64,000 nucleotides of DNA from Candidatus Woesearchaeota archaeon (GTDB taxonomy: Archaea > Nanobdellota > Nanobdellia > Woesearchaeales > 0-14-0-80-44-23). Each line of letters starts with the position of its first letter. The first letter of the stretch is position 1. Of this stretch, positions 3,045 through 28,267 are shown piece after piece. The stretch spans positions 416,001 to 480,000 of the forward strand of contig JAVZCZ010000001.1 in NCBI GenBank assembly GCA_038874135.1, written 5' to 3'. The notes under the pieces are model-generated. The model did no database searches. It was not told the origin of the DNA and worked only from the letters and a program-made list of their open reading frames with translations. The position numbers were made by a program, and so were the translations under genes.

Positions 3045-3087
3045 ACTGTTTATAACCTGAGGAGTCTGGAAAAAAGAGGGATCTTAA

Positions 3088-5185: not shown

Positions 5186-5204
5186 ATTCGCTGCGCCTTT
5201 TTAT

Positions 5205-5792
5205 TTATTTGTTATAGTGCTCAAATGATTTTCCAATGTCGTCCCACATCTTTTTGAAAGCGCTGTCCCCCTGAGGCTTTCCCGGCTCTGCAGTTATCGC
5301 CCAAACTATCACTCCAAATACTAAAAGTGCTACCACTACTGCCACTGTCTCAGGATTGGCTGCCACTGCCGAAAACGCCCTTGAACCAAACCAGCCAGCT
5401 GCTGAGCCGAATATGATTATTATTGCTGCCAGCGAGAATATTACTATGGCTCCTCTCATACTGCTGCCCTCTCCAGTGTAGCGTATGCCCCAAGCCCCTA
5501 TGAGCAGGAGAACCATTATAACTGCCACGATGATTGCAGTAACATTGGGTATTGCTTCATTTATTATTTCCACAACATCCGCTCCTGGAGGATAGCCGCC
5601 TGTAACGTGAGGTATTACTACTGTTAATGCGAGCACGAGGGATACTACCACATTAATGTTTTTTCTATCCTTTCCAAAAAGGTTTATGTTGCTCAGAACT
5701 GCAAAAAGTATTGCAAATATAAGGGTGAATGGCAGAAGCACATCCATAAGACCCATGCTTTCAAACGCGATTAACACTTCTTTAAAATCCAT
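5205..5792 (-). CDS. Multi-pass membrane protein, paralog 2 of a tandem trio
   Basis: DVLLPFTLIFAILFAVL...KNINVVVSLV motif; about 5 TM helices. Confidence 0.8.
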   Translation of the reverse strand: MDFKEVLIAFESMGLMDVLLPFTLIFAILFAVLSNINLFGKDRKNINVVVSLVLALTVVIPHVTGGYPPGADVVEIINEAIPNVTAIIVAVIMVLLLIGAWGIRYTGEGSSMRGAIVIFSLAAIIIIFGSAAGWFGSRAFSAVAANPETVAVVVALLVFGVIVWAITAEPGKPQGDSAFKKMWDDIGKSFEHYNK

Positions 5793-5798
5793 TTTTCA

Positions 5799-6374
5799 TC
5801 ACCCTTCTTTTTTTGGACTTGAAGTTATAAATGCTATTGCTCCTATCATGAGGCCCAGCAGCACTATTGTGCCTACAACGTCATTATTTACGCCTGAACT
5901 GCCAACTAGTGCGTTGCGTATTCCTGTGAAGATTATTGAAAGCACGCTCTGCCCTGAGGAGAGCTTAAATGCATTTAGGAATATCAGCACTATGCCTACA
6001 AACATTATAACCATAAATAGGTTCTTCCAGCCGCCTTCCAGGAAGACTCCTTCACTCGTTTGCTTTTGAAATGAGCCGACAAGAATTAGGAAGAGCACTG
6101 AAAGCACTAGCAGAAGCACTGAGTTGGAGACTGTCTCGTTTATCATTGCAACTAGGCGAGTAGAGCCCACCACTAAGAGAGAAGTTACGAATGCTACCAT
6201 GGAGTTGAGGTTTTTTCTGCTGTACTTCTTTCCTCCAATCTCTTCGTATCCTAAGACAAGCGTCTTTTCTAATATGCCAAACACTAAGGTGAAAACTAGA
6301 AGCATTGGAAGGATAACATCATAAACTCCGAGTTGGTCAAGAAAGCTTATGGTTTCTCTCAAGTTGGATGCCAT
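5799..6374 (-). CDS. Multi-pass membrane protein, paralog 1 of a tandem trio
   Basis: DVILPMLLVFTLVFGILEKTLVLG...KNLNSMVAF motif; about 5 TM helices. Confidence 0.8.
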   Translation of the reverse strand: MASNLRETISFLDQLGVYDVILPMLLVFTLVFGILEKTLVLGYEEIGGKKYSRKNLNSMVAFVTSLLVVGSTRLVAMINETVSNSVLLLVLSVLFLILVGSFQKQTSEGVFLEGGWKNLFMVIMFVGIVLIFLNAFKLSSGQSVLSIIFTGIRNALVGSSGVNNDVVGTIVLLGLMIGAIAFITSSPKKEG

Positions 6375-10095: not shown

Positions 10096-10581
10096 TTACT
10101 TAACATACTCCCTAGTCCAGTTTATAACAACATCCCGTGGTCCCATCTTATAGATTGTGAACCTAATGTTTGCAACCATCTTCTTACCAAGGGCTTTTTG
10201 GATTAGGTAGAATAGCCCAGTTCTTTCAGATAGATCTATAGCCTGCATTGAAGCAGAACATAATTTAATACTTAAGCAGTGAGCATCTTCTTCTTTCAAC
10301 TTGAGGCAGAGCTGGTTTCCCGAGCCCTCACTGCCGTCCTCATCTGCCACATAGAGCTTTTCAACGCTGAATGGCAGTATATAATTTTTTGAAATCTTAT
10401 CATATGAGCCGCCCAGGCAGACCCTGCTCACTGAAAGCTCTAAGTCTTCAAAGTTTTCAAAAGCCTGATTCTTCTCCTGCTGTGCAAGGTATCTTGAAAA
10501 GAAGGTGTATGCTCCTCCAAACAGGAGTCCTCCAAGAAGTAATCCGGCTACTATCCACATCCAAATTTCAACTGACTCCAT
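10096..10581 (-). CDS. Pilin-like protein with N-terminal TM helix (no basic leader)
   Basis: N-terminal hydrophobic helix, then amphipathic helix and beta/Cys domain; last gene of the pilin operon. Confidence 0.65.
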   Translation of the reverse strand: MESVEIWMWIVAGLLLGGLLFGGAYTFFSRYLAQQEKNQAFENFEDLELSVSRVCLGGSYDKISKNYILPFSVEKLYVADEDGSEGSGNQLCLKLKEEDAHCLSIKLCSASMQAIDLSERTGLFYLIQKALGKKMVANIRFTIYKMGPRDVVINWTREYVK

Positions 10582-10582
10582 T

Positions 10583-11020
10583 TCACTCTATCCTAACCAA
10601 TTTTTTCTGGTAATCGTAAGAGATTATCGCCTTGTTGCTGGAGTCAAATGTTATTTGAAAGTTCGTCATGCCTGCCTTTGTTAACGAATCGCTAATCTGC
10701 TCCTTTCTGACTGAGCTGCAGTCCGCGGTTATAATGTAGCATATCGGCTCATTGCCTTGTTGAAGGCGGCCTTGCTTTCCGTTTTCGTTACAGAGACGGG
10801 CGTGCTTCACAATCTCACTTAGGAATTCGCTGCATGTAACATTTATTTTTTGTATGTCCCCTACTGGCTGTTCTGAACCGCATTCACCTGTTAGTCTGCA
10901 GATGAACTTCTGCGCACTTAGGCTGTTCTTCGCAATTATGCCGATTACTACGAAGACGGTTATTGTTGCCAGAAATATCAAAAAAGCGTATTGTATGGTC
11001 ATATCTGCTCTTCTTTTCAT
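10583..11020 (-). CDS. Class III signal peptide (prepilin-like) protein
   Basis: MKRRA|DMTIQ followed by a hydrophobic stretch; several Cys. Confidence 0.75.
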   Translation of the reverse strand: MKRRADMTIQYAFLIFLATITVFVVIGIIAKNSLSAQKFICRLTGECGSEQPVGDIQKINVTCSEFLSEIVKHARLCNENGKQGRLQQGNEPICYIITADCSSVRKEQISDSLTKAGMTNFQITFDSSNKAIISYDYQKKLVRIE

Positions 11021-11022
11021 TA

Positions 11023-11433
11023 TTACACCCTGCTGAAAACATCTAGCAGTTCTCTTAACATTGGAAGTATGAAGAAGTAGATTACTGCTCCCGTTATTAT
11101 TAGAGCTATTAAAATCAGTCCATATTTTAAGAGCGGATTCAGCTGCTCATTCTTTTCAACTAACTCTTCCTTAGGCTTTTCAAGTTCTATTTTCACTGTT
11201 ACTTCACTTTTTTTCTCCTGAGGCTCTTCAACCTTTTCCTGCTCTCTCTTTTCTTTGAGCGAATTTTCCTGTCTCAACTTTATTGTTATATCATCTTGGG
11301 ATAGTTTTTGAGCGTTTCCAAAATGGTCAATCTCGTATATTCTGGACAGTGCTGACTCTTTTGAGAACTCATACGCTTCACGAAGTGTTTCAAATTCCCT
11401 TCTGCCCTTTTCACTGGATACCACATATGTCAT
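11023..11433 (-). CDS. Hypothetical protein with C-terminal TM anchor
   Basis: Charged N-terminal domain, one hydrophobic helix at the C-terminus; tightly packed in the operon. Confidence 0.7.
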   Translation of the reverse strand: MTYVVSSEKGRREFETLREAYEFSKESALSRIYEIDHFGNAQKLSQDDITIKLRQENSLKEKREQEKVEEPQEKKSEVTVKIELEKPKEELVEKNEQLNPLLKYGLILIALIITGAVIYFFILPMLRELLDVFSRV

Positions 11434-11434
11434 T

Positions 11435-13552
11435 CTAGGTCACTACAACCTGGCGTTTAGTTGAATCGTATTCAACAAGTATGTTTGTATTTGTATTTAT
11501 ATCTTTTGTGAAATTTATGTTGTCCGAATCTCCGCAGCCGTACTCCGAATCTCCAATTATGTGACACCATTGTCTATCCATCAGAATTTTTGCAATGTCC
11601 CTCTCAGTTACTGCCCTTATGAAGTTATATTCTCGCGGCACTCCCAGTTCTGAGCAGAAGAAACTTGTTTTCTCCTGCCCGTATCTTGACTTGCGCCAGC
11701 AGTCTGCAATTGCTGAAACTATCTCCTCTTTAACAGGATACTTCGTATAGCTGAGTTTAAGATCGTCTGCTATCAGCTGAGTTGGGCCTGCTGTGCTAAT
11801 CTTAAATGTAAATGTACAGTAGTCAGATGAACAGCTTTTTTCAAGCTCTTTAATTTCATCTGTCAAAGAAACTGTTTTTGACTCAGCATTTAAGTTTGTA
11901 GCTGTCATTACATCTTTACCTTCAATAGACAAGGTTACCCCTTCTGCTTTTATGTCGTAGACGATTTTTAGGTGGCTAATGCTAATTGTGCCGTCCCTTC
12001 CAGAGGACACTTCTAAAGGTATTATGCAGTTGCCTTCCTCATCTGGAGAGCATTCTGAGAGAGCTCTCTGCAGGGAATTTACAAAACCCTGCCCTGAAAC
12101 CTTCCACGGAGAATTCACATTGTTTAGCTCGTCTTGGCGGTAGGCAAATTGTACTCCTGAAATGGAAAGCCCTATCTGGTTTGGATAGTTTGAGATAACC
12201 ATCTGCTTAACTGCCTCTGCTAATGCTGCCTCATCCCTAAATCCAAAGATTTTCCCCCCTGTAGAGGAAGCCAGCCTTTTCATCATACTAATTATCTGCC
12301 TACAATTGTTAATCACAACCTCGTTACAGTTTGGCGCTTGAACATTTATGCAGCTATAGGGATGTGAAGGACAGCATCCATCATAACAGCCTGGCCCGCT
12401 TCCTATGCTGAAGCCTTCTGGAGTGGTGCTGTCATCGTCTCCATAAACAACATTAACAAATATATTGTTCTGCTGAGCCTTCTGTATTGCCCTGTCGATT
12501 ACTTCTTCCTCGTTTCCACTCATAGATACTGGCGTGGGGTATTTAGGAGGCGCATCATTAGAGCAGGGGCTGAATACAACTGATTGATAAACAGCCCCGT
12601 TGGGGTCCGAGTCGCTTATGAGGATTTCAATCCTCTTCGCATCTGAGAGCCAAGCATCTTCACCTTCTATCTGCGAGGATAGATAGTAAGATGCTACACC
12701 CCAAGCTTCAGACGGCTGGTCTAAACCTATAGTTGAGTATGAACAACCAGCTGAAGAAAAGGAAAATTGGCATGTATTCATTGGAAGGCCTGTTTCTCTG
12801 AGTTGGTCGTATGTTATTTTCAGGTTCTTCGCTGGAATGGGACAGTTTTTTGCCACATTGGTTTTTCCGCACGGGTCTCCAACGCCGATTGCGTAGACTC
12901 TAACTCTGTACTCTTCTATGTGCATTGCTGACAAGATTTTTGAAATATTACTTACTATTGAGCATACTGCACTCCACTCGTTAGTCATGCTTCCTGAAAT
13001 GTCTATTGCAAAAGCGATATCGGTCTTTGTTGGATAGTTGCTTCCGTAAAGCTCTATGGAAGCATTTTTTATTATTGCATATTTTGGAATTTTTATTAAG
13101 GCCGTGTTGGTTCCCCCTCTCAATGGATAGGGTGGCAGAGTAATGTTTGTTTCTCCAGAAGCAAAGGTTCTGAGCACAATGTTGTGAGGGGCCCCTATAA
13201 CTATTGAAGCGTTTTGAAGAATTGCATCCCTGTCCACTGTTATCTGAAAGGTCCGTTCAAGACGAGAATTACTGAATCCTAAGATTTTAGTGCTGCTCCC
13301 GTCTGAAAACTCAGATGATATAATCTGTTCTGCCTTTATGATTTTGACATCGTGAGGCCCAACGCCTGCGCAGAAGCTGTCCATTCGCGTGTTGTAAAAA
13401 CGGGGAACATACTTGTGTGCAAGTTTGCAGTAGAACTCCTTACCGCTCCTCATCTGAGCTCCAAGGGAAAGCATAAGGGCTATTGCAAGAATGGTTATCA
13501 CTATTGAGAATACTACATTTATTGCAAGCTCACCTCTTTTTTTTACAGACAT
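11435..13552 (-). CDS. Prepilin-like protein with inserted vWA domain (candidate adhesin)
   Basis: KKRG|ELAIN signal; DIAFAIDISGSM (MIDAS DxSxS), ILISDSD, LASSTGG; Cys-rich C-terminal domain shared with two neighbours. Confidence 0.82.
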   Translation of the reverse strand: MSVKKRGELAINVVFSIVITILAIALMLSLGAQMRSGKEFYCKLAHKYVPRFYNTRMDSFCAGVGPHDVKIIKAEQIISSEFSDGSSTKILGFSNSRLERTFQITVDRDAILQNASIVIGAPHNIVLRTFASGETNITLPPYPLRGGTNTALIKIPKYAIIKNASIELYGSNYPTKTDIAFAIDISGSMTNEWSAVCSIVSNISKILSAMHIEEYRVRVYAIGVGDPCGKTNVAKNCPIPAKNLKITYDQLRETGLPMNTCQFSFSSAGCSYSTIGLDQPSEAWGVASYYLSSQIEGEDAWLSDAKRIEILISDSDPNGAVYQSVVFSPCSNDAPPKYPTPVSMSGNEEEVIDRAIQKAQQNNIFVNVVYGDDDSTTPEGFSIGSGPGCYDGCCPSHPYSCINVQAPNCNEVVINNCRQIISMMKRLASSTGGKIFGFRDEAALAEAVKQMVISNYPNQIGLSISGVQFAYRQDELNNVNSPWKVSGQGFVNSLQRALSECSPDEEGNCIIPLEVSSGRDGTISISHLKIVYDIKAEGVTLSIEGKDVMTATNLNAESKTVSLTDEIKELEKSCSSDYCTFTFKISTAGPTQLIADDLKLSYTKYPVKEEIVSAIADCWRKSRYGQEKTSFFCSELGVPREYNFIRAVTERDIAKILMDRQWCHIIGDSEYGCGDSDNINFTKDINTNTNILVEYDSTKRQVVVT

Positions 13553-13557
13553 GTCAA

Positions 13558-15750
13558 TCAGCTCACAATTATTGCTCCTTCCTTTTCAGAGTATTCTATA
13601 AGTACATTTCTTCCCGGAATTATTTTCTGAATTCTCCATTTTAACTGGTCGTACCTTCCGCAGTTAAAATCTGAGTTTCCAAGTGTTTCGCAAAGCCCAT
13701 TTTCTTTTAAAATTTTCGTGATTTTGTCTTCATCTACATCTTCAACATAGGTGCAAGTTGAAGGTATAGTGATCTCATAGCAGAGCAGGTCTGAGTTGCG
13801 CTCTCCAAATCTTGCTTTTTCCCAGCAAGCAAGCGAGTATGCTGCAATAACTTCAGAAACGCTGCACTGCCCATATTCTATTTCAATTCCTGAGAGCACA
13901 ATCTCTCCAGCGTCCTGTGAAGCTGCTGAGATTGTTACTTCGCATTTGTCCTTTTTGCAATTAGCTGCCTGTGAAACCTGTTTGGTTATGTCCAACTGTA
14001 TTGCTGGAGCATATGGCTTCATCACTTCAAAGTTTCCCACATCTACTCCAAAGACGTTTATTAGCACTCCTCTTATAGGAAGTTGGTAGTTTATACTTAG
14101 ATTTTCAATTGAGATTATTGGCTCAGAATTGAATATCATAGCGCTTATCTTCAGGGGAATTATGCAATTTCCATCCTGATCTGGAATGCACCTTCTCAGC
14201 CAGGAGTTCAATTTTTCAGAACTAATATGTGCTGTCCTGCCACTTTTGAATGAGCCGCTGCTCTGCCAGTCTGGCTGTGCCGAATTGCACGAATAAAATT
14301 TTATCCATGAAGATTTTTTCAAGCGAGAAATTATGGCGTTAATCATGAAGTTTGTATCTCCAAACTCCGATCCGAGCTGTTCTTCAATATTTGGAGCGAT
14401 GTAAATCACGCTGCCATTGCCGTATGAGAACTCTATAACTGCCTGTCCAGGTCTTCCATAGTTTCGGTCTGCACATTTTAACTTAAGGTCCTTGTCAAGA
14501 GGAGATGGATTAGTTGAGTTGTAAACGAGGTCCGCAAGGACTTTTACCTTGGAGTTTGAATAGTTTACCTCAACGCAAGGAGTGTTATCATATATCACAG
14601 AGTACTGCTTGTTTGAGCTTACTCCGTATTGCGCTTCTGCCTGTGCGGAGAATGTTATTCTTTGGCTCTCTCCACACCTGCCTCCAAAACCTACAGTTTC
14701 CCTGCACGGAACTATTGATTTATCATTGCAATTTTTTGGAATTGTTGCGTTGCACTCAGTTTTGTAATCTGCCTCATCAGGACTATTGCCTTTTGAAGGA
14801 ATAAGTTGGTCTTGCTTCTTAGCCTGTAAAAGCCCCGGGCAGTTCTGGTATGGAGTTATTCTTTTGAAGTATGGCGTGATTTCTTTTTCAGGAAGTTGAG
14901 ATTCGCTGAAGAGTTCAACTAGAAGGTTTATTGCCCAGCCGGTTACCATCAGCGTGTTTCCTTCTGCTATCCAATCCTTTAAGTATTCCCTGTCAGCACT
15001 ATTTCCGATGGTTGTATTAAGCCCGCTTCCCACTATGAGCACAGAATGTTTTGCGAGTGTCTCTTTCCAGTTTGGGTCTCCCTTCCAGCACTTACTCTCA
15101 TCATATGAGATGAGATAATAGTAGAGATATTTTCTCACATCATCAAAAATTCCGGAGCCGTACTGCTGGCCGCACTTGTTTGAGTAGCCCGTGAAGACAA
15201 GCACTTCTGAACTTTCACCTTCCTGTTTAGAGTAGAAGTCAAAAGAAGCGTTAAGAACGTGGGCGTCCTTGGGAAGTTTCAGAAATAGAGTTTGCTCAGC
15301 TTCTTTTGAGAAGTCCAAAACTTTTGATGTGCTTCCATCGCTCAGAGTATTAACCCTTCCGAGAGAATATCCGAATATTGAAATCTTTGCTCTAGTTATG
15401 TTTGTAGCTGGGACTAGAATGTGAGCGGTAGCAGTTAAGCCAGGGCCTACACTTAAAACTTTTCTTTCAGAACCATCTGAGAAGCTTCTAAGGATCACCT
15501 TTTCCATTTTGATTGTGCTGTTTTGCAAGCTATCATCTTGTGAGCAATATGCTTCTTCAGCTGTTCCGGAACTGAGCGAGAACATCACTTTTAAGGGCGA
15601 AAGTATACTGCAGTAAACGGAGCGGGATAAATACGGAAACTTTGAAAAGATTAACAGGAGAAAAATTGAAACTGCAATTATTCCTACAAATAGTGTAAAT
15701 GCAAGAGTTATTGAAAACTCTCCTTTCCTGCTCATTAGTTTTAGCTTCAT
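13558..15750 (-). CDS. Prepilin-like protein with inserted alpha/beta (possibly GATase-I/ThuA-like) domain
   Basis: SRKG|EFSIT signal; central VLIVGSG..LKDWIAEGNTLMVTG..YGNGSVIY segment; paralogous flanks and C-terminus with 11435..13552. Confidence 0.75.
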   Translation of the reverse strand: MKLKLMSRKGEFSITLAFTLFVGIIAVSIFLLLIFSKFPYLSRSVYCSILSPLKVMFSLSSGTAEEAYCSQDDSLQNSTIKMEKVILRSFSDGSERKVLSVGPGLTATAHILVPATNITRAKISIFGYSLGRVNTLSDGSTSKVLDFSKEAEQTLFLKLPKDAHVLNASFDFYSKQEGESSEVLVFTGYSNKCGQQYGSGIFDDVRKYLYYYLISYDESKCWKGDPNWKETLAKHSVLIVGSGLNTTIGNSADREYLKDWIAEGNTLMVTGWAINLLVELFSESQLPEKEITPYFKRITPYQNCPGLLQAKKQDQLIPSKGNSPDEADYKTECNATIPKNCNDKSIVPCRETVGFGGRCGESQRITFSAQAEAQYGVSSNKQYSVIYDNTPCVEVNYSNSKVKVLADLVYNSTNPSPLDKDLKLKCADRNYGRPGQAVIEFSYGNGSVIYIAPNIEEQLGSEFGDTNFMINAIISRLKKSSWIKFYSCNSAQPDWQSSGSFKSGRTAHISSEKLNSWLRRCIPDQDGNCIIPLKISAMIFNSEPIISIENLSINYQLPIRGVLINVFGVDVGNFEVMKPYAPAIQLDITKQVSQAANCKKDKCEVTISAASQDAGEIVLSGIEIEYGQCSVSEVIAAYSLACWEKARFGERNSDLLCYEITIPSTCTYVEDVDEDKITKILKENGLCETLGNSDFNCGRYDQLKWRIQKIIPGRNVLIEYSEKEGAIIVS

Positions 15751-15751
15751 T

Positions 15752-16627
15752 TTAACTTATTCTTATCTTCTTTGAGTTGTTTAAAAACTCTATCAGGATT
15801 GAGCCCTGCGGATGTATTGAAGTTAAATTCCATTCTATGTCATCTGAATCACCACACTCGTAGTCCAAGTTAGAGATTGCCCCGCATAAACCGTTATCAC
15901 GGAGATATTTAGTAAGCGTTGACTCATTTATGTTAAGCGGCGGACAGTTCCTTATCAGGATTGCCGCGCACGGAATATTTTCAGAGTAGCTTCCGAAGTT
16001 TGCGCTCTCCCAACAAGAGATTGTTGAGGCAGCAATTGCTTCAAGGAGGGGGCAATCCTTATAAGTTAGGGAGAGATCTTTAATCCAAACCTTGCCACTG
16101 CTCCTTACACTTACATTTAAAATGCACGGGTACGCCTTGCATTTTGAGGAGCATTCTGCTAAATTTTTAACAAGTGAACCAGGGCTAGTATAATATTTTG
16201 AGGGAACTGCTCCTTCTATCTGCCAGTCAGCATTTTTAGAACCGCATATGTAAAATTCTGCACTTCCAGACTCTGCCCTTGCTGAAAAGGAAAACCCGGT
16301 GAGGGTAGAATTTATTGGCAGGATGAAGTAGAAGGTGCTTTCACCATTAGAAGTAAAAGTTGTTGAATTGTCCGCAAACCTCTTAACAAAAATCCTGCTA
16401 GGTTTTACTTCAATGAAGTGCAGCATTGAAAATTCCCTGCAATAATCGGAACTTTGCCTTATTCCAGAGGGGAGGAATGATGCAGAAGCCACATAAAAAA
16501 ATGTTTTGCAGTAAACCTGTTTTGCAAATACGGGCATCTGAAATGAAAAGAAGGATATGAGCAACACGATTGCTAAAACTGCTGTCAATCCGCCAAAGAT
16601 TGCACTTATAGTAATTTCAGCCCTCAT
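15752..16627 (-). CDS. Prepilin-like protein, short paralog of the two preceding genes
   Basis: Likely start MRA|EITIS at 16627 (overlapping the upstream stop; ORF track starts at 16648). C-terminal CWESANFG..C..GLCGAISNLDYECG domain. Confidence 0.75.
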   Translation of the reverse strand: MRAEITISAIFGGLTAVLAIVLLISFFSFQMPVFAKQVYCKTFFYVASASFLPSGIRQSSDYCREFSMLHFIEVKPSRIFVKRFADNSTTFTSNGESTFYFILPINSTLTGFSFSARAESGSAEFYICGSKNADWQIEGAVPSKYYTSPGSLVKNLAECSSKCKAYPCILNVSVRSSGKVWIKDLSLTYKDCPLLEAIAASTISCWESANFGSYSENIPCAAILIRNCPPLNINESTLTKYLRDNGLCGAISNLDYECGDSDDIEWNLTSIHPQGSILIEFLNNSKKIRIS

Positions 16628-16974
16628 TCCATCCTCCTCACAAGGCACTTTGAGGAGCTGCTGTAGATCTTAAGAGTGTAGCTTCCAGGTGCCAAACTGT
16701 GAAATCCCTGAAACTCAAAATTGGAAGAGCTGTTAAGAACCCCTTCAGTTATCTCTGCCGTTATAAGGAAGCAGTCCCTCTCTGCAGGACCCCTGCACAA
16801 TTCGCAAAGACGGCTTATCTTGTGGTATAGTTGGCTGGCACTTCCCGAGAAGTTTTGAAGTTCGTCCTCTCGCGTTGGCTTTGCACCTATCACTTTGAAA
16901 GCAAAAGCCATAAGCAGGCCCATCACTGCTACTGCCACTACTAGAATTCCAACCTTCAGGTAAGTATCTTCCAT
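16624..16974 (-). CDS. Small pilin-like protein with N-terminal TM helix
   Basis: Hydrophobic N-terminus, CxxC..C pattern, translational coupling with the next gene. Confidence 0.65.
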   Translation of the reverse strand: MEDTYLKVGILVVAVAVMGLLMAFAFKVIGAKPTREDELQNFSGSASQLYHKISRLCELCRGPAERDCFLITAEITEGVLNSSSNFEFQGFHSLAPGSYTLKIYSSSSKCLVRRME

Positions 16975-17038
16975 AATGCCTTATTTGCCCTTTCAATTTA
17001 AATTTATTTCTCAAATTTTGATGCTGGAAGCATTCGTG

Positions 17039-19174
17039 CTAGCCAGTGGCTGAAATTCCTGAAGCCACCAGCATTTTTAGGAAAGTTGAACCTATCACGG
17101 TTACGAATACGTAGACTATAATTGCAATAAGCACATTCTTGGCTATCTCCGCATCTCTGGATATCTCATCAAAGCCGTTCTCAACGCCGTTTGCAAGCTG
17201 CGATAATAGGAACACTGCTTCTATGGTGTAGATGCCTACTAACACCTGAAATATTGGCGGGGGAGTCACCCGTGTGAAGTTTATAAATTCAGTAAAAAAT
17301 CCAGTATCCTGAGAGCCCAATGCGCTGCCTGCTAGCTTCTGCATTACGAGTTCCAATCTTCCCAACATGTCATAAAGGGATTTAATAATTACAAGGGTCA
17401 ATGAGCCTACGATTCCTGCTATGAACGGTGCTAGGAACTTTGCCTGCATCCTTACTGAGGTGACTGTCTCTTCCAACAAGTCGTATATGAGCTCTTTTAT
17501 CTTCTTCACATTGTCAAGGTAGACTGCAATCTTCTGCATTATATTGTATATAACCTGAGAGCCCTTCCTGGCGCTTTCAGTAAATATCCACATTATCTCT
17601 TTTAAGAGGGTGGACGGGTACTCTTTTATTATGCCCTCTTGAGGGTGAAAGACTGCCTGTCCAAATGTCAGCCCGAGTGTCCGCATCTTTTCAAGAATCC
17701 TATTAAAAAGGTGAAATATCTGCCTCTTTTTTAAGTTCATAACCTGATAATTGTTTACGAAGTTTTCAACTGCGATCTCAACCGGAATATTCTCTGTAAA
17801 CTGGTTTGCTATGCTATACAGAGAGGCGTTTAAATCTTCTTCAATTTCAATTATCTCGTCCCTAAGCTTTATCTTCTGAACGCTCCTTCCATAATAGAAG
17901 AGAAATATGCCAACAGCAATTCCAACGGGTATTGTCAAGGTCATAAACATAACGCTCGACTCGTATTCGTGAGCCAGGGCTGGAGGAGGCGAAGCGTTTG
18001 CCGGAAGCTTGCTGGCTTCCAGGAATACGGGAATTGTAGCAGTGAAAAGGTGAAAAAGCCCCGGGCTCATTATCAAGAGTGCAGCTAAAATGGCAACTGG
18101 GAGGACTGGAACAAGGTAAGACTTCTTTCTAACCAGCAGTCGGTATTTTCCCTTCGGAGGAAGATTAGGATTTCCAGAGATGTCTGGTGCTGAGAAAGCT
18201 CCTGGCCTCTTTGCAAGTATCCTGTTGGAAAAGAAGTATATCAGGGAGGGCAGTATTACGATGTAGCCGAAAAAGAGGTAGGATATTTTAATACTTGAAG
18301 ACATGAATACGCTTATGATTGGAAAAGCAATAAGTCCTATGAGTGGTAGCATTAAGCCGAAGGTGTTTATTATCATTATCGGATTCTTCAAGTCGTGAGC
18401 GTAGTATTTCATCTTTTCATAAGTGTCCTGGAGTAGAGTGGAAAGGGCCTTATCAAGTATTGCAGATTGGTGTTCCTTGTCCGGCTGGGTGGTTACGCTT
18501 AGAAGTATCATAAACGACTTTACAAAGTCGGGATTCCTCTTGAGCCAGAGCTCCATATAAAGTTTGAAGCCGTCGTGAATTGAGGATATCTTTCCACCAT
18601 CTAAAAGCCAGAGTATTCTCTTGAAGTCTCTGCCGAGTGGTCCATTAAGATGCTCTGTGGCAAAGGCTATTGCGTTTTCCAGCACCGGATTCACGCGCAT
18701 GTAAATTGTTATATAGAGGAGAGCTAGTAGTGATTCCTGTTGGGCTCTTATCTTGGTAATCTGACTTGAGAATGCTGGGTATGTGTAAGCTATATAAGCT
18801 AAGAACATTCCCGTGAAGATAAAGAAGAATGCCAAGTCAATCCAGCCCAGAATTATTAGAGGAAGTGCTGACATAATGCCGAGGAGCACTGTTAGGATTG
18901 CAGCTGCTAGCACCTGCTTAGGTCTTATGTGGAGCCTTGCAATTTGGATATCCTCATACATTTCCGGTTGAGATTCATCTTTTACATCTATAAAAGAAAG
19001 AAGTTTTCCTGCAAAATCAGCATATTTTTCAAAAAAAGTGGGAAGTGCAGCCTCCTCTTGCTCTTCCCGAGCAAATGAGGAAAATTGACTGGAAACAAAT
19101 TCCGACTGCTGCCCCTGCCCGGAAGCCAGCCTCTTTTTAACTTCTGCTTCTATCTCTTCAATGCTTTTAGGCAT
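17039..19174 (-). CDS. TadB/TadC (type II secretion F)-like membrane platform protein of a type IV pilus system
   Basis: 711 aa in two repeated halves (NPVLENAIAFA..GPLGRDF; NIPVEIAV) with multiple TM helices; embedded among prepilins. Confidence 0.8.
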   Translation of the reverse strand: MPKSIEEIEAEVKKRLASGQGQQSEFVSSQFSSFAREEQEEAALPTFFEKYADFAGKLLSFIDVKDESQPEMYEDIQIARLHIRPKQVLAAAILTVLLGIMSALPLIILGWIDLAFFFIFTGMFLAYIAYTYPAFSSQITKIRAQQESLLALLYITIYMRVNPVLENAIAFATEHLNGPLGRDFKRILWLLDGGKISSIHDGFKLYMELWLKRNPDFVKSFMILLSVTTQPDKEHQSAILDKALSTLLQDTYEKMKYYAHDLKNPIMIINTFGLMLPLIGLIAFPIISVFMSSSIKISYLFFGYIVILPSLIYFFSNRILAKRPGAFSAPDISGNPNLPPKGKYRLLVRKKSYLVPVLPVAILAALLIMSPGLFHLFTATIPVFLEASKLPANASPPPALAHEYESSVMFMTLTIPVGIAVGIFLFYYGRSVQKIKLRDEIIEIEEDLNASLYSIANQFTENIPVEIAVENFVNNYQVMNLKKRQIFHLFNRILEKMRTLGLTFGQAVFHPQEGIIKEYPSTLLKEIMWIFTESARKGSQVIYNIMQKIAVYLDNVKKIKELIYDLLEETVTSVRMQAKFLAPFIAGIVGSLTLVIIKSLYDMLGRLELVMQKLAGSALGSQDTGFFTEFINFTRVTPPPIFQVLVGIYTIEAVFLLSQLANGVENGFDEISRDAEIAKNVLIAIIVYVFVTVIGSTFLKMLVASGISATG

Positions 19175-19192
19175 AATACACCACTATGTTTT

Positions 19193-20995
19193 TCAAGATA
19201 CTGAAGGTTGATCTGGGGGAGGTGGAGGTGGGTTAGGCGGATTGTATGGAGGACTTGGTGGCTCGGGTGTAGGATTTGGCTCGTCCTTGTTATGAACAAG
19301 TATTCCTTCAGCATAGAAGTCATTCACGCTTTCTATGCGTTTGAGATTGTAGGTTCTTATTTTTGTAGGGCTGCACTCTAATGAGATTACCCTTTTCAAA
19401 ATAATGTTTTTCCCATCAAAACTGAATGCATAATCCCCTCTTTCAAGAGGTAATACTTTGAGATTTGGCGTCTCCCCTTTTGAATTCTCAGGAGAGATTG
19501 AAGCCCAGCCCTTTAGAGTGTATATTGGATGCTCGTCAGTAAGTCTTAAAAATGAGCCGTCTTCAAAGGATACGGTGCAAAGGTGGTCCCTATATGGAGA
19601 TTCAAGCTCCAGCACCCTTGCTGGAACATGCTTTCCAGTTTTAAAATCATAGCCGAGCACCAGCTCTCCAACTCTGACATCTTCAATATTTTTTAAGCTT
19701 CCATCAGCCATTCTTATTCTAGTTCCAGCAGGAAAACAGGAGGAAGGCGTATCACCTGTTGGCTCACAATGTTCTGGGCAGTCGCATTCGGGCTCTGGCG
19801 GGTTCGTAGTTCTGGTGAGGAATACGTGCACTAAAAGGTTGAACCTCAAATTTTCAAAACCGCTTTCAGAGATGGGATGCTGATACTTTGTGTCAGTACA
19901 GGTTATATTCATTATAAAGTCTATATTGTGCCTCTCTCCATAACCGTAGGGGGAGAATGGGCAGGTTATCAGAGTGTTAGGTTCAAGCTGTGTTCCGAAA
20001 GGAATCTCAACTTGGGGCTGCTCTGGAGGGCTTGGGATGTTCTGAGGATTTTCACATTTTCCGTCAGATTTTTGCCCGCTCAAACAGTTCTGCTTAAGAT
20101 CTGGATAAGGGCATCCTGAAGCTGGCCAGATAACTCCGCATCCTGCCGGGCAGTTTATAGCTGCGCTGCACAATATTTCGGTTTTTGCATAAAGGCATGG
20201 AAGAGTGTAGGTACACTTTACATATGAATCAAATGAGTCTTGAAGATGCTTCAATGACGAATCTGCTATTTGTTTAACATATTCCTCATTTATAACATAT
20301 GCTGGACATGCACTTGTTCCAACTCCGTAATAAGTCATAAGTTTATCACAGCTATATTGCGATACGATGTTCTGCCTAGCCCATTCCTCAATCTTCCTGT
20401 AAAGGTACCAGTAGCGCAGGGGATAAGCATATGACTTGAACGCATTCTGCTCCTGAACCTCTTCTCCAGAATCAACTTCCTTAACAACTGCTGGAATTGT
20501 ACCCCTTCCCTCAGCCAAGAAGCCTTCATCTGCGCCTGCGGAACCGTCCATCTCATAAAGGTCTGTATCTGAAACGAGTATTTCAATAGATGATATGTCA
20601 CCCGCATCTTCAATCTTAAATTTTCCAAGATCCTCTCCACGTATTGAAGCAAGATACTGGTTAGTGTAGATGATTGCAAACCGGCTAAGATTACTCTTTG
20701 CTTCCCAAAGTTTAGGCGGGATTGAAGAGGAGTAGCTTATCCAGTATGAGTTCTGAGCACCTGCTCCAGAGCTTGCGCTGTCATAGGATGCACGTATAAG
20801 AGCGTCTCTGAAAGAGTGAAAGGAGTAAGTTCTCAGAATTTCAGAGTAGCTGTTCAGCTGAGATTTCTGCTCTTGAGAAGTTGTAAATTCAACTACAGCC
20901 TTCCTATTCTGAAGATATACCAGGTAGAATATCAGAATTACAAGTGCCACGAAAAAGAGCAGCATAAATGTTGATGCGCGCCTATTGAACTTCAT
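19193..20995 (-). CDS. Prepilin-like Cys-rich protein with C-terminal Hint (intein-like) domain and Pro-rich tail
   Basis: Likely start MKFNRRA|STF at 20995 after SD GAGGTGA (ORF track starts at 21016). Contains CFPAGT...TDEHP...YNL...GILVHN. Confidence 0.85.
   Translation of the reverse strand: MKFNRRASTFMLLFFVALVILIFYLVYLQNRKAVVEFTTSQEQKSQLNSYSEILRTYSFHSFRDALIRASYDSASSGAGAQNSYWISYSSSIPPKLWEAKSNLSRFAIIYTNQYLASIRGEDLGKFKIEDAGDISSIEILVSDTDLYEMDGSAGADEGFLAEGRGTIPAVVKEVDSGEEVQEQNAFKSYAYPLRYWYLYRKIEEWARQNIVSQYSCDKLMTYYGVGTSACPAYVINEEYVKQIADSSLKHLQDSFDSYVKCTYTLPCLYAKTEILCSAAINCPAGCGVIWPASGCPYPDLKQNCLSGQKSDGKCENPQNIPSPPEQPQVEIPFGTQLEPNTLITCPFSPYGYGERHNIDFIMNITCTDTKYQHPISESGFENLRFNLLVHVFLTRTTNPPEPECDCPEHCEPTGDTPSSCFPAGTRIRMADGSLKNIEDVRVGELVLGYDFKTGKHVPARVLELESPYRDHLCTVSFEDGSFLRLTDEHPIYTLKGWASISPENSKGETPNLKVLPLERGDYAFSFDGKNIILKRVISLECSPTKIRTYNLKRIESVNDFYAEGILVHNKDEPNPTPEPPSPPYNPPNPPPPPPDQPSVS
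19289..19738 (-). other. Hint domain (150 aa), no homing endonuclease
   Basis: Block A CFPAGTRIRMADGS, block B LRLTDEHPIY, block F/G TYNL..FYAEGILVHN; the +1 residue is Lys. Confidence 0.88.
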
Positions 20996-21005
20996 AAAAA
21001 TCACC

Positions 21006-21524
21006 TCAGCCTGCAATCACAAGCAGTGCACCCCTCTCGTAGCTTCCCGAAGAGCAGGGTCTTGGAAATCTGAAATCATAGGATACATATTCAGTGAATT
21101 CTGGAGTACCAGATTCGGAGATTAAAGAGGAGGTGAGAAAAAGCGGTTTAGAGCCCTGGCTGTCTGATTTTAGGATTAGAGCCCAAGCATTTTTCCCGTA
21201 TGTGGAGTCAAGCATTGCTCGTAAAGATTGAATTATGTTTATCTGTCCATTCCCGTAGTTTGCAGTTTCCACTCCGTAACAGGAATAAACACCCAAAAGT
21301 TCTTCTATTGGGATTCCCAAAGAGTTTCCTGCTGCATCCTTGGCGGTTATGTATGGAAATGAAAATCCTGTGGAGGCAACTCCTGATACGCGCATATCTC
21401 TAAGTATTGCTTCTGCCCTGTTAAGAACAGATGCAGAGGTCTGCATCCTCACAAAGATTGCAATCAGAACTATTGTTGCCACAAGAACTATTATGCCTAC
21501 GAACTCTGAGGACTGCGCCCGCAT
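21006..21524 (-). CDS. Class III signal peptide (prepilin-like) protein
   Basis: MRA|QSSEF followed by a hydrophobic helix. Confidence 0.75.
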   Translation of the reverse strand: MRAQSSEFVGIIVLVATIVLIAIFVRMQTSASVLNRAEAILRDMRVSGVASTGFSFPYITAKDAAGNSLGIPIEELLGVYSCYGVETANYGNGQINIIQSLRAMLDSTYGKNAWALILKSDSQGSKPLFLTSSLISESGTPEFTEYVSYDFRFPRPCSSGSYERGALLVIAG

Positions 21525-21573
21525 ATCAACCCCTTTTTTGTGAATTAAATTCTCTTTCGCATATTTAAAGTTT

Positions 21574-22308
21574 TCAGTATTTTACTCTTACTGAATTTGA
21601 ACTTTCATTATAAGAGATTAGCACAAGAGATTTTCCTTTGGGAATTGTGAAGTTTCCAACACTGCATTCAAACCTAGGAAAGAAAAGGTATTCCCCAACA
21701 TAGAAAGTGTTTGTAAAGTTATCATACCTTATGTTATAGTCTGAAATAAGAATGTGCTGCATCCCCTCATGGCTCCTGCAAGCCTGTTTTATCTTGCCAT
21801 AAAATGAGGGGATGCTGCCGATGTAAGCGGTAATGGATGCAAATCCGGGATTTATAGTTGGCACCTCCGAAGGGTATCTTATAGCGATAGGAAGTGCTAT
21901 TGTTAAAGTATCCTCTGCAAACTGCGGCTCATTCAAAAGGCCTATGCGCCACTCCTTCCCCGTAAGACTATCTACAACTCTGAATGTGTAGAGAAAGTCA
22001 TACTGCTCTACGCAGGATATGTCCTCGTTACCCCTGTTGTAGTAGTCCAGCTTTTGCTGGTATAATACCGCCTGAGACGCAGTGGTCCAGCTTCCCTCTT
22101 TCTCCTTATATGCGAAACAATCGCTGGCAATCATCGCCTTGAGAAATGAGGTTGCAAGAGCATAATATTCAGATGTAAACTTGGCTTTCTGAGAAGAGGT
22201 TCTACTTCCTAGCAAGGTCATTATTACAAACATTAAAAAAATAACCGTGAATATGGCGAATATTGACTTTATCGTAAGATCCTCAGAGCCCTTTTGTGAA
22301 ATCCTCAT
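21574..22308 (-). CDS. Class III signal peptide (prepilin-like) protein
   Basis: SQKG|SEDLT followed by a hydrophobic helix; SDCFAY motif. Confidence 0.72.
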   Translation of the reverse strand: MRISQKGSEDLTIKSIFAIFTVIFLMFVIMTLLGSRTSSQKAKFTSEYYALATSFLKAMIASDCFAYKEKEGSWTTASQAVLYQQKLDYYNRGNEDISCVEQYDFLYTFRVVDSLTGKEWRIGLLNEPQFAEDTLTIALPIAIRYPSEVPTINPGFASITAYIGSIPSFYGKIKQACRSHEGMQHILISDYNIRYDNFTNTFYVGEYLFFPRFECSVGNFTIPKGKSLVLISYNESSNSVRVKY

Positions 22309-23087
22309 CTTTCACCATTCACCTTCGCTCTTATTATCAAAAAAGCCAACACTAAAATTATACAAATTGCTACTAACGCAGCAATGAGCAGCTTGGAAGA
22401 GTTATCCTCTCTTTTCTGAATAGTTTTAATACAATCGGGATCTTTGTTTGGAGCGCAGTCAGGATCACAGATGCCGTCCTTAACCATATCGCAATAGCCG
22501 TCCCTGCTTCCAGATTTGCAGTCCTGCGGACAGCTAAGATATGTTTCAGTAGGATCGCAGACTGAGTTACCACAGCCTGAAGGGGATATGTTGATAGGGT
22601 TGGTTTCAGTTGGAGTGCTTGTGCTGCAATCTGCTGGACAGCTTATTTCACTTTCATATTTCTCACAAATGCCGTTTACTCGGCAAAAATTAGAAGTTTT
22701 AAAAGAAAAAATTTCTACACCTGATTTAAAGATTTTTATAGTGTCCGCATTGGCAAAAAAAGGAACTTTTAGTTCAATCAGAGTATTATTTGAGCTGATA
22801 GATACTGGCGGATCACTCATTATATTAAAACTAACAAAAAAGGGAAGTGAATATAACTCTTTATCTTCAGAATACACTTTTAGGTAATATTTTGTAGGAG
22901 AGTCTGTTGGAATCGTTTTATACCCTTCAAGCACTTTAGCATATGTTAAGTTTATTTCTCCAGTATTCCAGAATAAAATCTGCATGTCGTAGATTTTTTC
23001 ATATGCCAGAGTCATATCTATTGAAATAAGTAGAAATAACAAAACTGTTGCACTTATTATGAGATTTTTCATTTTCATCAGCCACAA
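22305..23087 (-). CDS. Secreted Cys-rich protein with C-terminal TM anchor
   Basis: Sec-type signal; C..NG.C...E....CP.DC twice and DGICDPDC motif; C-terminal hydrophobic helix. Confidence 0.78.
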   Translation of the reverse strand: MWLMKMKNLIISATVLLFLLISIDMTLAYEKIYDMQILFWNTGEINLTYAKVLEGYKTIPTDSPTKYYLKVYSEDKELYSLPFFVSFNIMSDPPVSISSNNTLIELKVPFFANADTIKIFKSGVEIFSFKTSNFCRVNGICEKYESEISCPADCSTSTPTETNPINISPSGCGNSVCDPTETYLSCPQDCKSGSRDGYCDMVKDGICDPDCAPNKDPDCIKTIQKREDNSSKLLIAALVAICIILVLAFLIIRAKVNGER

Positions 23088-25129
23088 TATTGTTGTATTA
23101 TTCTACTTCTTAAATAAGTATAGCTTGTGGAAGTGAATGCATATCCTTCGCTGCATCCATAACGGCATGCATCCATAGAGCACATTATGCTATCCTTTTC
23201 TGGAACATTTGGACAGCAATAAAGCTCCTCTCCTTCTGGGACATAACAATTATCGTAGCAGTCCCTTCCGCCAACAGTATACCAACCGCTAGGGCAAGAA
23301 CTGCACCTGCCTCCTCCATAACCTTCATCACAAAGTCCAAAGGTGTGTCCCATTTCGTGAGTGCACACATTAGTAATGCGAGTACCTGAAGATACGAGTG
23401 CAGGGTAGTTTAGGTAGGTATATCCGCCAATACAACTTTCTCCTTCATTATACACGCAGTCCCCTGCAACTACACCTATGATTCTATCATACTTTCCCGC
23501 GTACCCCCAGGAAGTTGCACATTGTTGTATTATGTTTAGCGCATTACCATTTCTTCTGTCAGTTTCCGATACTGGACAAATTTTAGTATCTTCAAATAAG
23601 TAGCACACTCTATCTGGACATTCCTTGAATGGACTTAGCGAAACCCAAGCGTCTCTCGCTGCCTTGGCAACATTTCCAAAGTTGCTTATAGGATCTATTT
23701 TTATAAATAACATAGTAAACGAGCAGCTGTTTTTGCATGTATTTCCATCCCAGCTTTTTCCATTTGGACAGCAAGCCTTGTCATTACTATTCTTAGGATT
23801 TGACATGCATTTCAAGCCAGAGTTGCACTCTGCATCGCACTCACACCTTTGCCCTTCTGCTTTTCCTCCTGGTGTGATGCAGTATAAGCCGTTCTGCTTT
23901 TGGCACTTTTTTGTTCCGGAGGGACAGCATCCGCTGCTTTCTGCTCCTACACAGTTTGGACAGCATTCAGCAGTGCACTTGCAGTCATTAGGAGAGTTTT
24001 GGCAGTTTTCGCTGAATGGCTCACTAGTGTTGCAGATGCCATCATTTTTGTAGTTTGTGCACGCCCCGTTTTTGTAGTAGCTGTCTGGGGGGCAGCATCT
24101 AAATGTGCCAAATCTTGTATCGCAGATTAGTTTTTCTCTATCTTGTGAGCATTGGCAGTCCTGAGTGCACTGCTGCCCCTTTGCTGATAGCTTCGTCTTT
24201 TCAATGCAGCCTCTTTCATCTAGGAAGTTTTGAATTGCTGGGCAGTCCGCCTTGCAGATCTGTGAATCTGAGCATTTGCAGTCCTGAAAGAGGGGGTAGT
24301 CTAAGCAGCTTTCTCCCCTGTTTGGCTCGCAAATGCCATTCCCCTTGTGAGGGCAGTCTGCATCATACTGGGTGCAGTCTGGATCGCAAACTCCATTGGT
24401 GCCGAGGCAGTCTGGATCACAGATGCCATCCTTAATATTGTTAGTTGCTGGGTCACAGATTCCGTCATTTTCATAGTCTACGCAGTCAATATCATAAACG
24501 CCCTTGTCAAAGTTTGTATAGCATGCTGGAATGCAGATCTTGTCTGCATCTGCAGGGTCTATTCTACCATTCTTGTTGGTGTCCAAGCAGTAGGGGTTGC
24601 ATACTGATTTTTCCATTGGACTCTTGCAAGCTGGATCGCAGATTCCGAGGGCAATACAGGCAGCATCGCACTTGTCATCTTCAAGGTTGCACTCCTCAGC
24701 TGCATTCGCCCTCGTTATTATGATGTAGTTATCTTTTTTGTAGATGTGTATGATTCCTGAGTTTTCAATATTTGATGGTATTACTACTGAGTTTCCTGGA
24801 AAGAAGTATGTTGTGCTAGTGAGGTTGTTGATTGCAAAATGAGCCAGAATCCTGTTCTGGCTAATGTTTATGGTATAGATTAGTGGGTCTTTGAGCGTTA
24901 TTACGTATTCAACATTTGCGGGAGTGGATGCTGCTTTTTCTATTGCACTCTTTAAATCCTCAACTACTGAGATTGTGTAATCAATCTCAACCTGCTTCGC
25001 CTGTTGGAGAGCCAGGTTTCTTAGGACGCCTACTATTGCAAGAGAGATGAATATCATTCCTATTATAAGGATTGAATTTGTTAAAGTGGCGCCTCTTCTT
25101 CTGGTCCGGTTATTCAAAAATATTTTCAC
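23078..25129 (-). CDS. Prepilin-like Cys-rich protein with C-terminal zinc metalloprotease (metzincin-like)
   Basis: RRRG|ATLT signal; DGICDP repeats; DTNKNGRID loop; HEMGHTFGLCDE and SIMC Met-turn. Confidence 0.82.
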   Translation of the reverse strand: MKIFLNNRTRRRGATLTNSILIIGMIFISLAIVGVLRNLALQQAKQVEIDYTISVVEDLKSAIEKAASTPANVEYVITLKDPLIYTINISQNRILAHFAINNLTSTTYFFPGNSVVIPSNIENSGIIHIYKKDNYIIITRANAAEECNLEDDKCDAACIALGICDPACKSPMEKSVCNPYCLDTNKNGRIDPADADKICIPACYTNFDKGVYDIDCVDYENDGICDPATNNIKDGICDPDCLGTNGVCDPDCTQYDADCPHKGNGICEPNRGESCLDYPLFQDCKCSDSQICKADCPAIQNFLDERGCIEKTKLSAKGQQCTQDCQCSQDREKLICDTRFGTFRCCPPDSYYKNGACTNYKNDGICNTSEPFSENCQNSPNDCKCTAECCPNCVGAESSGCCPSGTKKCQKQNGLYCITPGGKAEGQRCECDAECNSGLKCMSNPKNSNDKACCPNGKSWDGNTCKNSCSFTMLFIKIDPISNFGNVAKAARDAWVSLSPFKECPDRVCYLFEDTKICPVSETDRRNGNALNIIQQCATSWGYAGKYDRIIGVVAGDCVYNEGESCIGGYTYLNYPALVSSGTRITNVCTHEMGHTFGLCDEGYGGGRCSSCPSGWYTVGGRDCYDNCYVPEGEELYCCPNVPEKDSIMCSMDACRYGCSEGYAFTSTSYTYLRSRIIQQYCG

Positions 25130-25211
25130 CTCTTTTTAAATCCCGTATTTAGAAAAAGATATTTATAAATCCTTCTTTATTGTAAGATTAAATGGAATGA
25201 AAAATAAGAAA

Positions 25212-25745
25212 TTATCTCTCTGTAAATCCAAACCTTACCTTCCAGTTCATCTGGCTTTCAGTGTCTAATCCGCACCCGTCATCTAAGCCCCTAGCAGCCA
25301 ATTGGTCATATGTTGCTAGGTTGTTGTTGTCTGGATCTAAGAGTGTGTTCTTACAGGTTTCTCCAGTATATTTTCCGTTCTGACATTTATCCACTAACAC
25401 GAAGCAAGGCACCTTGTCCTCACAGAACTGCCACTTTCCATAAGTCACTTTATCCTTCAAATTTTGATTGCCGTTCCAATCAACCTGTATTGTTCTCTTG
25501 CAGAACTCAATTAGTGTGTTGTCATCATTTATTGCTTCGCATAACCCTTGACAGGTCTGTATTGCCTTATCAATTGTCGCCTTTGTAAAGTACTCTGTTG
25601 AAGCACCTTCCATCTTACCAGAGCTCTTCTCAGTAAACTTGAAGAATAGGCTAAGCACGACTAGCGAAATTATGAGTAGTACGAAAAGCCCGAATATCAT
25701 TTGAAGCTCCTTTTCTCCCTTTCTTGAAAAGAACACTTGTATCAC
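25212..25745 (-). CDS. Class III signal peptide (prepilin-like) protein
   Basis: SRKG|EKELQ followed by a hydrophobic helix; Cys-rich body; SD GAGGTGA. Confidence 0.75.
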   Translation of the reverse strand: MIQVFFSRKGEKELQMIFGLFVLLIISLVVLSLFFKFTEKSSGKMEGASTEYFTKATIDKAIQTCQGLCEAINDDNTLIEFCKRTIQVDWNGNQNLKDKVTYGKWQFCEDKVPCFVLVDKCQNGKYTGETCKNTLLDPDNNNLATYDQLAARGLDDGCGLDTESQMNWKVRFGFTER

Positions 25746-27022: not shown

Positions 27023-27024
27023 TT

Positions 27025-28245: not shown

Positions 28246-28267
28246 AAAACATCACTTCCCAATTTGC

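Follow-up and report, generated by a model that had tools for sequence, protein, structure and literature searches.

A probable accessory type IV filament module with a second platform and exchanged hydrolase tips in a Woesearchaeales archaeon

It is an open question how DPANN archaea recognise their hosts and breach them, and for Woesearchaeales and Aenigmarchaeota hardly any host is known. The locus described here raises a concrete form of it: what does a run of 14 genes, most of them pilin-like and several with enzymatic or adhesive domains, do for its cell? The locus lies at positions 10096-25745 of a stretch of 64,000 nucleotides (hereafter the window; GenBank assembly GCA_038874135.1, contig JAVZCZ010000001.1, positions 416,001 to 480,000), which is part of a closed Woesearchaeales genome of 909,956 bp. 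A first, sequence-only reading had proposed a pilus or pseudopilus that displays interchangeable enzymes and adhesins for attachment to a host or prey and breach of its envelope. We find that the locus is very probably an accessory type IV filament module with a second platform protein of its own. Recombination exchanges the hydrolase at the tip of one of its subunits far more quickly than the scaffold changes, and of this we are equally confident. In the following, G000 is the genome of the window, and other G, L and P labels stand for genomes, loci and proteins of the relatives that we compared.

Gene content and signals of the module

All 14 open reading frames are present and co-oriented, as had been claimed; they lie on the minus strand, with intergenic gaps of -25 to +82 nt. 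We labelled the genes, or slots, N, M, L, K, J, I, H, G, F, E, D, C, B and A in the order of transcription. Arrows mark the predicted cleavage sites.

25212..25745, minus strand: slot N, prepilin-like (RKG↓E, motif scan), 177 aa, first gene of the module
23078..25129, minus strand: slot M, prepilin-like (RRG↓A), with a Cys/Asp-rich DGICDPDC stalk (67 Cys) and a C-terminal hydrolase
23078..23734, minus strand: tip of slot M, metzincin-like Zn peptidase, M12/M64-like (Pfam M12 and M64 below cut-off)
22305..23087, minus strand: slot L, Sec-type signal, beta domain, DGICDPDC repeats and C-terminal transmembrane segment, from sequence
21574..22308, minus strand: slot K, prepilin-like (QKG↓S), marker for the distribution, with a vWA domain in some distant loci
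21006..21524, minus strand: slot J, prepilin-like (RA↓Q)
19193..21016, minus strand: slot I, prepilin-like (RRA↓S), Cys-rich, with a Pro-rich tail
19289..19738, minus strand: Hint domain of the bacterial intein-like (BIL) type within the slot I tail, Cys1 to His-Asn, Lys at +1
17039..19174, minus strand: slot H, platform 2, 711 aa, about nine transmembrane segments, with two domains of the PilC/GspF type in the cytoplasm (around residues 136-262 and 432-569)
16624..16974, minus strand: slot G, small pilin-family protein, leaderless here
15752..16648, minus strand: slot F, prepilin-like (RA↓E), with an inserted jelly roll like a carbohydrate-binding module (CBM; 16058-16402)
13558..15750, minus strand: slot E, paralogue of D and F, with a nested, questionably GATase-like insert (about 14308-15216)
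11435..13552, minus strand: slot D, prepilin-like (KRG↓E), nested beta-sandwiches and a vWA domain with a metal-ion-dependent adhesion site (MIDAS; about 12188-13027)
11023..11433, minus strand: slot C, small, only a C-terminal transmembrane segment, N-terminus probably cytoplasmic, kept in the module
10583..11020, minus strand: slot B, small, prepilin-like (RRA↓D)
10096..10581, minus strand: slot A, leaderless here; the leader of its orthologue has Glu at +5

Class III-like signals were called by a motif scan for K/R-G/A followed by a hydrophobic segment. Nine of the 14 genes have the motif with one hydrophobic segment after it, and these include every N-terminus that had been quoted from sequence. 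In the whole genome 60 out of 807 genes carry such a signal, so that P(>=9 of 14) = 6e-8. A window of nine in 14 was reached in 1 of 10,000 gene-order shuffles, and the module is the densest such cluster of the genome. Three signals (RRA↓S, QKG↓S and RKG↓EK) presumably depart from the strict FlaFind consensus; their K/R-G/A site is retained in the orthologues. The orthologues of the leaderless slots A and G carry leaders (KKG↓TESVE and RRA↓P, respectively), and therefore eleven genes of the module belong to pilin-like families. In total, the module comprises one platform, nine prepilin-like genes, two further genes of pilin families that have no leader here, and two membrane proteins. A sigma-70 promoter scan is uninformative for an archaeon.

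The platform and its motor

Slot H had been read as a TadB/C-like platform and T2SS-F homologue, and structural comparison agrees. Its AlphaFold model (mean pLDDT 71) matches ESM Atlas clusters named GspF-domain with a TM-score of 0.82. Residues 136-262 match the solved SpoIIIAB (Z 8.1, root-mean-square deviation 4.0, 126 aa), and residues 432-569 match the solved PilC (Z 6.8 and 6.7), EpsF (6.6) and TcpE (6.1). These proteins supply five of the top seven structural matches. Because a single family accounts for them, the most fitting reading of slot H is a platform in which two domains are fused. Only VIA-align and the Atlas identified it as a platform; searches by PDB sequence and by Foldseek failed to do so. 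This second platform is intact and 51-77% identical across families, where it co-occurs with the pilin set.

The cluster had been described as without an ATPase or prepilin peptidase of its own. This is correct within 10096-25745, and both are encoded elsewhere in the genome. The ATPase lies in the same window, 7.7 kb downstream of the module:

87..2423, minus strand: VirB11/ArlI-like assembly ATPase, 778 aa (PF00437 above cut-off)

Directly behind it and just outside the window (C1:413874-416081) is platform 1, a paralogue 32% identical to slot H. The single A24 prepilin peptidase of the genome has a GGGD motif and is found at C1:265058-265936; in G231 an A24 peptidase directly follows the module.

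Of the platform family, a member was detected in 40 out of 41 genomes from the order. Two platforms are found in 17 of the 18 module genomes that we examined, the other being an 89%-complete draft with platform 2 only. The long ATPase (770-780 aa) was found in 16 of these 18 genomes and never in more than one copy. We considered a dedicated ATPase for the module and rejected it, since none of the 18 genomes has a second long one; the two other ATPases of G000 each come with their own TadB/TadC pair and pilins. Furthermore, the module adjoins the ATPase in three other families. The module genes of G010 and G219 have platform 1 on one side and the ATPase on the other. In G361, where platform 1 is elsewhere, platform 2, G and F adjoin the ATPase. 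Based on copy number and synteny, it is likely that the one ATPase at 87-2423 is shared by platform 1 and platform 2. A complex prediction of ATPase residues 1-465 with platform residues 125-580 scored 0.20 against a mark of 0.32 and is no evidence either way. In one relative (G388:C7:15428-19186) the open frame of the long ATPase reaches 1423 aa; near residue 505 there is a gap of some 500 aa, probably an intein.

A constant stalk with exchanged tips

Slot M carries the one clear enzyme among the payloads of G000. The HExxHxxGxxD protease motif noticed from sequence is at residues 591-601 of 23078-25129, and a probable Met-turn is at residues 647-651. The stalk core (residues 200-250) is 44-74% identical across families, and identity collapses in the C-terminal domain. 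Among about 90 slot M homologues the tips are Zn peptidases, papain C1, gingipain C25, C39, S8/S53 and transglutaminase-like peptidases, SGNH hydrolases, glycoside hydrolases, M23, SLT+M23 or unidentified domains, and some homologues have no tip. The corresponding Pfam families are C1, C25, C39_2, S8, Transglut_core, M64/M12, GDSL, GH and M23+SLT.

In the stalk tree, slot M of G000 groups with L078, L080 and P0010, and there are well-supported sister pairs with unlike tips (SGNH/Zn and Zn/unidentified). Within the family of G000 (f1), stalks are 52-73% identical. The tips of G000, the same-genus L078 and G003 are only 27-30% identical to one another and fall into three separate tip clades. These three tips share 38-46% identity with tips from distant loci, one of which is fused to slot A. 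Synteny and the incongruence of stalk and tip thus bear out, for 23078-25129, the earlier claim of interchangeable payloads on a constant scaffold, and the exchange is recent. In distant loci, slot A is a second payload site with M28, GH43-like, Zn peptidase or GATase-like domains. Side cases are a locus (L141:15249-21783) in which the K(vWA)-J-I block is duplicated in tandem alongside two paralogous M genes, with glycoside hydrolase and papain tips, and two genomes of one genus (L059:1063-3252 of G166, and G324:C24) whose assembled sequence shows slot M split or interrupted by a stop, the papain tip lying beyond the break in G166.

The gene after M is L, or K for the second M paralogue, irrespective of the tip and also after tip-less genes. 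There is therefore no cognate immunity gene. Slot L was considered as a tip-specific immunity protein and rejected, as it does not vary with the tip; it has no Atlas match above 0.8.

The Zn-protease tip of G000 itself says nothing about the target. A contig whose Alba gene marks it as archaeal has a complete homologous module (L140:401-10804), of which the M-family protein carries SLT+M23 (profile match 96%, E 1.6e-9). Another pilin-like gene on this contig has amidase_6/NlpC and a third has a Zn-peptidase payload, which makes its organism a candidate bacteria-targeting DPANN archaeon. The pseudomurein endoisopeptidases of methanogen viruses belong to the transglutaminase-like and C39 peptidases, which we take as a lead only.

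Domains nested in the pilin-like proteins

Slots D, E and F are paralogues that have in common a helix at the N-terminus and a domain with Cys at the C-terminus. G010 has a version of 200 aa with the helix and Cys domain only, and longer versions add nested inserts. The one pilin that we modelled, slot F (AlphaFold2, mean pLDDT 67), has a 41-residue N-terminal helix at residues 3-43, as expected for the pilin alpha-1 helix. Its jelly roll resembles CBM6/35 modules (Z about 8).

The vWA-MIDAS payload claimed earlier is present in slot D, with DxSxS at residue 184 (Pfam VWA weak, E 0.017), and is kept in six orthologues. The vWA domain also changes its slot. It is found in J or K in other lineages, where slot J has 380-490 aa with the vWA insert instead of the 160-175 aa seen here, and slot D of G231 has no vWA.

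Slot E was seen only in G000 and close relatives. For the GATase-like domain proposed in its insert there is a suggestive likeness of Atlas features, which are language-model features only (matches include DUF4960 and DUF2194 at 0.91-0.92), but no match in PDB or Pfam. The likely elbow position has Gly here and Cys in one orthologue, so the insert is probably non-catalytic if it has the GATase fold at all. There is no profile similarity to the GATase-like insert of distant slot A.

The Hint domain in the slot I tail was also correctly noticed. It covers residues 427-576 (Pfam Hint E 4.5e-7), and its best full-length PDB match is the chain 6Y75/6TMM (E 5e-7), which we take to be the Tetrahymena BIL2 domain. 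We rejected a class 1 self-splicing intein since the +1 residue is Lys and not Cys, Ser or Thr. Cys1, the terminal His-Asn, the missing +1 nucleophile and the location in a surface protein all fit the BIL type. None of 13 slot I orthologues has the domain (some are C-terminally incomplete), including a 63%-identical one of the same genus, which indicates a recent insertion. As a regular payload we rejected the Hint domain, which is single-copy in the genome and missing from the orthologues compared. It could clip the Pro-rich tail of slot I or ligate the pilin to a nucleophile.

Distribution

With a cut-off of E<1e-18, 19 of 401 Woesearchaeales genomes, belonging to ten families, have slot K. 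The gene set recurs in shuffled order across the relatives. Moreover, a distant version is found in many metagenome contigs, often with two M paralogues, and one M protein of this version is assigned to Aenigmarchaeota. The distribution of slot K together with the distant versions shows that the module is old, patchy and accessory. Separately, outside the locus of this window, five genomes encode a protein of 560-630 aa, probably a coiled coil, convergent to slot A (L025:632-2473, L061:1277-3001, L063:3181-4971 and L065:7816-9720), grouped by size and position only.

Neighbouring genes and other pilin-type clusters

The following genes lie around the module and the ATPase.

2550..3816, plus strand: two coiled-coil proteins kept beside the ATPase
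3821-4477, minus strand: VanX/DdpX-like D-Ala-D-Ala dipeptidase in the ATPase locus (NCBIfam E 3e-25, below cut-off)
4640..6374, minus strand: three paralogous multi-transmembrane proteins kept beside the ATPase locus
8578-9306, plus strand: protein with a JAB domain (Prok-JAB E 2.4e-4), separating the module from the ATPase locus
25805-30272, minus strand: MacB/LolCDE-type ABC exporter and CARDB protein, co-oriented and directly upstream of the module
35975-42742, minus strand: surface protein of 2255 aa with Big_9, cadherin, PKD and CARDB domains, a second adhesin candidate

In G003 of the same family, permease genes likewise precede the module. The archaeon is not expected to have murein, and the VanX/DdpX-like protein could use fragments of bacterial walls; the gene lists of G010 and G219 have no such gene at the equivalent place. 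Besides the module, G000 has at least seven further clusters of class III signals, two with their own ATPase and TadB/TadC. These clusters are at C1:121009-122090, 254493-265936, 340486-359634, 506681-508616, 540526-542194, 574865-579721 and 626381-635384.

Proposed mechanism and alternatives

We propose that the module is a duplicated PilC/TadC-type platform with about eleven minor-pilin-like subunits of cluster-2 DPANN archaea. The single A24 peptidase would clip the class III leaders, and the single ATPase would work with either platform 1 or platform 2, as copy number and synteny suggest. Platform 2 would then build a tip complex, carried either by a short pseudopilus or by a pilus whose major pilin is encoded elsewhere. 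The vWA-MIDAS and CBM-like jelly rolls present in the subunits may bind a glycoprotein or a cell surface, while the long disulfide-rich stalk of slot M would hold the hydrolase against the bound surface. The hydrolase is swapped by recombination, as in polymorphic effector systems. The likeliest purpose would be to grip the envelope of a host or prey (S-layer, murein or pseudomurein) and to digest it locally. As a whole, we regard this as a reasonably probable best explanation of the locus. For its functional part, a contact-dependent attack on, or entry into, the envelope of another cell, the balance tips only slightly in favour.

From the earlier proposal of a pilus with varied enzymes and adhesins, the filament module, the platform, the alpha-1 helix and the variation of the payloads were retained. 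In contrast to that proposal, the system has a motor, apparently shared with platform 1; the Hint domain is found in G000 alone among the genomes compared, and a GATase-like domain is no more than suggested. Since unrelated hydrolase folds are swapped within a genus, murein-specific ones included, a role against a host or prey fits better than self-remodelling. The payload types predicted in relatives also favour host or prey attachment and envelope breach.

Several observations weigh against our proposal. Slot H has no Pfam T2SSF or NCBIfam match, and its structural Z-scores are middling for helical domains. The pilin domain of slot F was not matched to a solved pilin fold, which we attribute to the jelly-roll insert filling the match list. 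No major pilin is encoded inside the module; two candidates of 84-85 aa are at C1:626381-626902. The slot M genes of G219 and G361 are tip-less or split. Finally, about 95% of the order is without the module, so it is dispensable for DPANN parasitism generally.

A more specific form of the proposal is that the module is a contact weapon, in which the second platform borrows the DPANN motor and shows polymorphic envelope hydrolases on minor pilins, with the tip reflecting the host range. This we hold tentatively, as plausible and short of an even chance. If true, the tip types would represent S-layer proteases, pseudomurein-type Cys peptidases and M23/SLT enzymes against murein. Some Woesearchaeota and Aenigmarchaeota would then be parasites or predators of bacteria, and the type of host could be read from the genome.

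The same assembly might instead serve as a surface scavenging complex comparable to a bindosome, with hydrolases that digest extracellular protein, necromass or biofilm matrix for an auxotrophic cell and tips that track the substrate. Class III signals serve sugar-binding proteins in Sulfolobus, nearly all of the tips are generic secreted-type proteases, esterases and glycosidases, slot A can carry an M28 aminopeptidase, and no tip-specific immunity gene comes with the tip. However, replacement by unrelated folds within a genus is more typical of conflict than of nutrition. A long stalk, adhesins and a dedicated platform are costly, and the neighbouring transporter is a MacB/LolD-type exporter and not a peptide importer. 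We consider scavenging rather unlikely, though an alternative to be taken seriously.

Less probable still is a pseudopilus like that of type II secretion systems (T2SS), whose piston or tip would export or position surface proteins and whose protease would remodel the own S-layer or mature adhesins. The many minor pilins and the missing major pilin resemble T2SS pseudopilin sets, and Makarova et al. 2016 (PMC4858521) tie surface peptidases belonging to the transglutaminase family to clade 1 type IV pilus loci and suggest pilin processing or degradation. A substrate of the cell itself, however, would give no advantage to changes between Zn, Cys and Ser proteases, an esterase and murein hydrolases. 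Moreover, we know of no murein in archaea of this group on which M23 and SLT could act. We regard this alternative as improbable.

That the proteins only sit in the membrane by an N-terminal anchor, have leaders like those of pilins and never polymerise, with platform 2 a non-functional or repurposed paralogue, would agree with the missing dedicated ATPase, the three leaders that presumably depart from the consensus and the two leaderless genes, but is very improbable given the intact and conserved platform 2 that co-occurs with the pilin set and the K/R-G/A cleavage sites retained across families.

Under the proposed envelope-directed role, tip chemistry should track the host envelope, which is a testable rule. 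The module offers candidate domains that are soluble and can be expressed, so that their substrates are open to assay with no need for the organism in culture. It would extend type IV filaments from the display of adhesins to the display of polymorphic enzymes and would give archaeal murein hydrolases a route of delivery.

Comparison with known systems

According to the available text of Hamm et al. 2024 (PMC11291902), cluster-2 DPANN archaea have two type IV pilus loci that are conserved and include coiled-coil proteins. As presented there, these loci share with ours a CpaF-like ATPase, a TadC-like platform, coiled-coil proteins and the occurrence in Woesearchaeota and Aenigmarchaeota. Their locus 2 with two coiled-coil protein (CCP) genes resembles 87-3816 of the window plus platform 1, a likeness drawn from the description only. 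The ATPase locus here is therefore probably one of these loci, and the coiled-coil proteins at 2550-3816 are probably the CCP genes. Compared with the loci in that text, our locus differs by the second platform, the module of eleven pilins and the exchangeable hydrolase tips.

Archaeal type IV pili are modular, with ATPases that serve different pilin sets and divergent pilin islands in DPANN archaea (Makarova et al. 2016, 2019; PMC4858521, PMC6393860). The clade 1 or Epd pilus of Methanococcus maripaludis (PMC4858521) is comparable in its many minor pilins, major pilins encoded elsewhere, A24 peptidase, an ATPase able to serve different pilin sets and linked peptidases of the transglutaminase family. 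In contrast, the platform here is one fused protein of 710 aa, duplicated while the ATPase is single, and the peptidases are fused to pilins and polymorphic. Pilins with a grafted vWA or glycan-binding module are described for PilB (vWA) and PilC of Streptococcus sanguinis (PMC8179133, PMC9934059). Relative to the pilins as portrayed in the available parts of these two papers, ours are archaeal, have their inserts nested in the globular domain of the pilin and have catalytic hydrolases exchanged between strains.

Murein hydrolases are reported to be prominent in Nanoarchaeota, and GH23 lytic transglycosylases are reported for Woesearchaeota (Strock et al. 2025, PMC12352652; Vigneron et al. 2022, PMC9723730). 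Neither paper contains the word 'pili' or connects its DPANN murein hydrolases with a pilus, and the tip of G000 is a Zn protease. Our literature search, which was incomplete in coverage, found no paper on a second-platform module, tip exchange or polymorphic hydrolase pilins.

Bacterial polymorphic toxin systems (CDI, Rhs and MafB) have a constant N-terminal trafficking part, a variable C-terminal catalytic domain and occasionally a Hint domain. Slot M shares the constant N-terminal part and the exchangeable C-terminal catalytic domain. Here, however, the trafficking part is a class III pilin, and the catalytic domains are hydrolases that degrade envelope or protein instead of cytoplasmic toxins. 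Furthermore, a cognate immunity gene and orphan tip cassettes were not seen. The module thus acts like a polymorphic effector display, yet it stands outside the toxin-immunity family. Pilus loci of DPANN archaea are already published, and we regard the second-platform module with polymorphic hydrolase pilins as a conserved variant of type IV filament systems.

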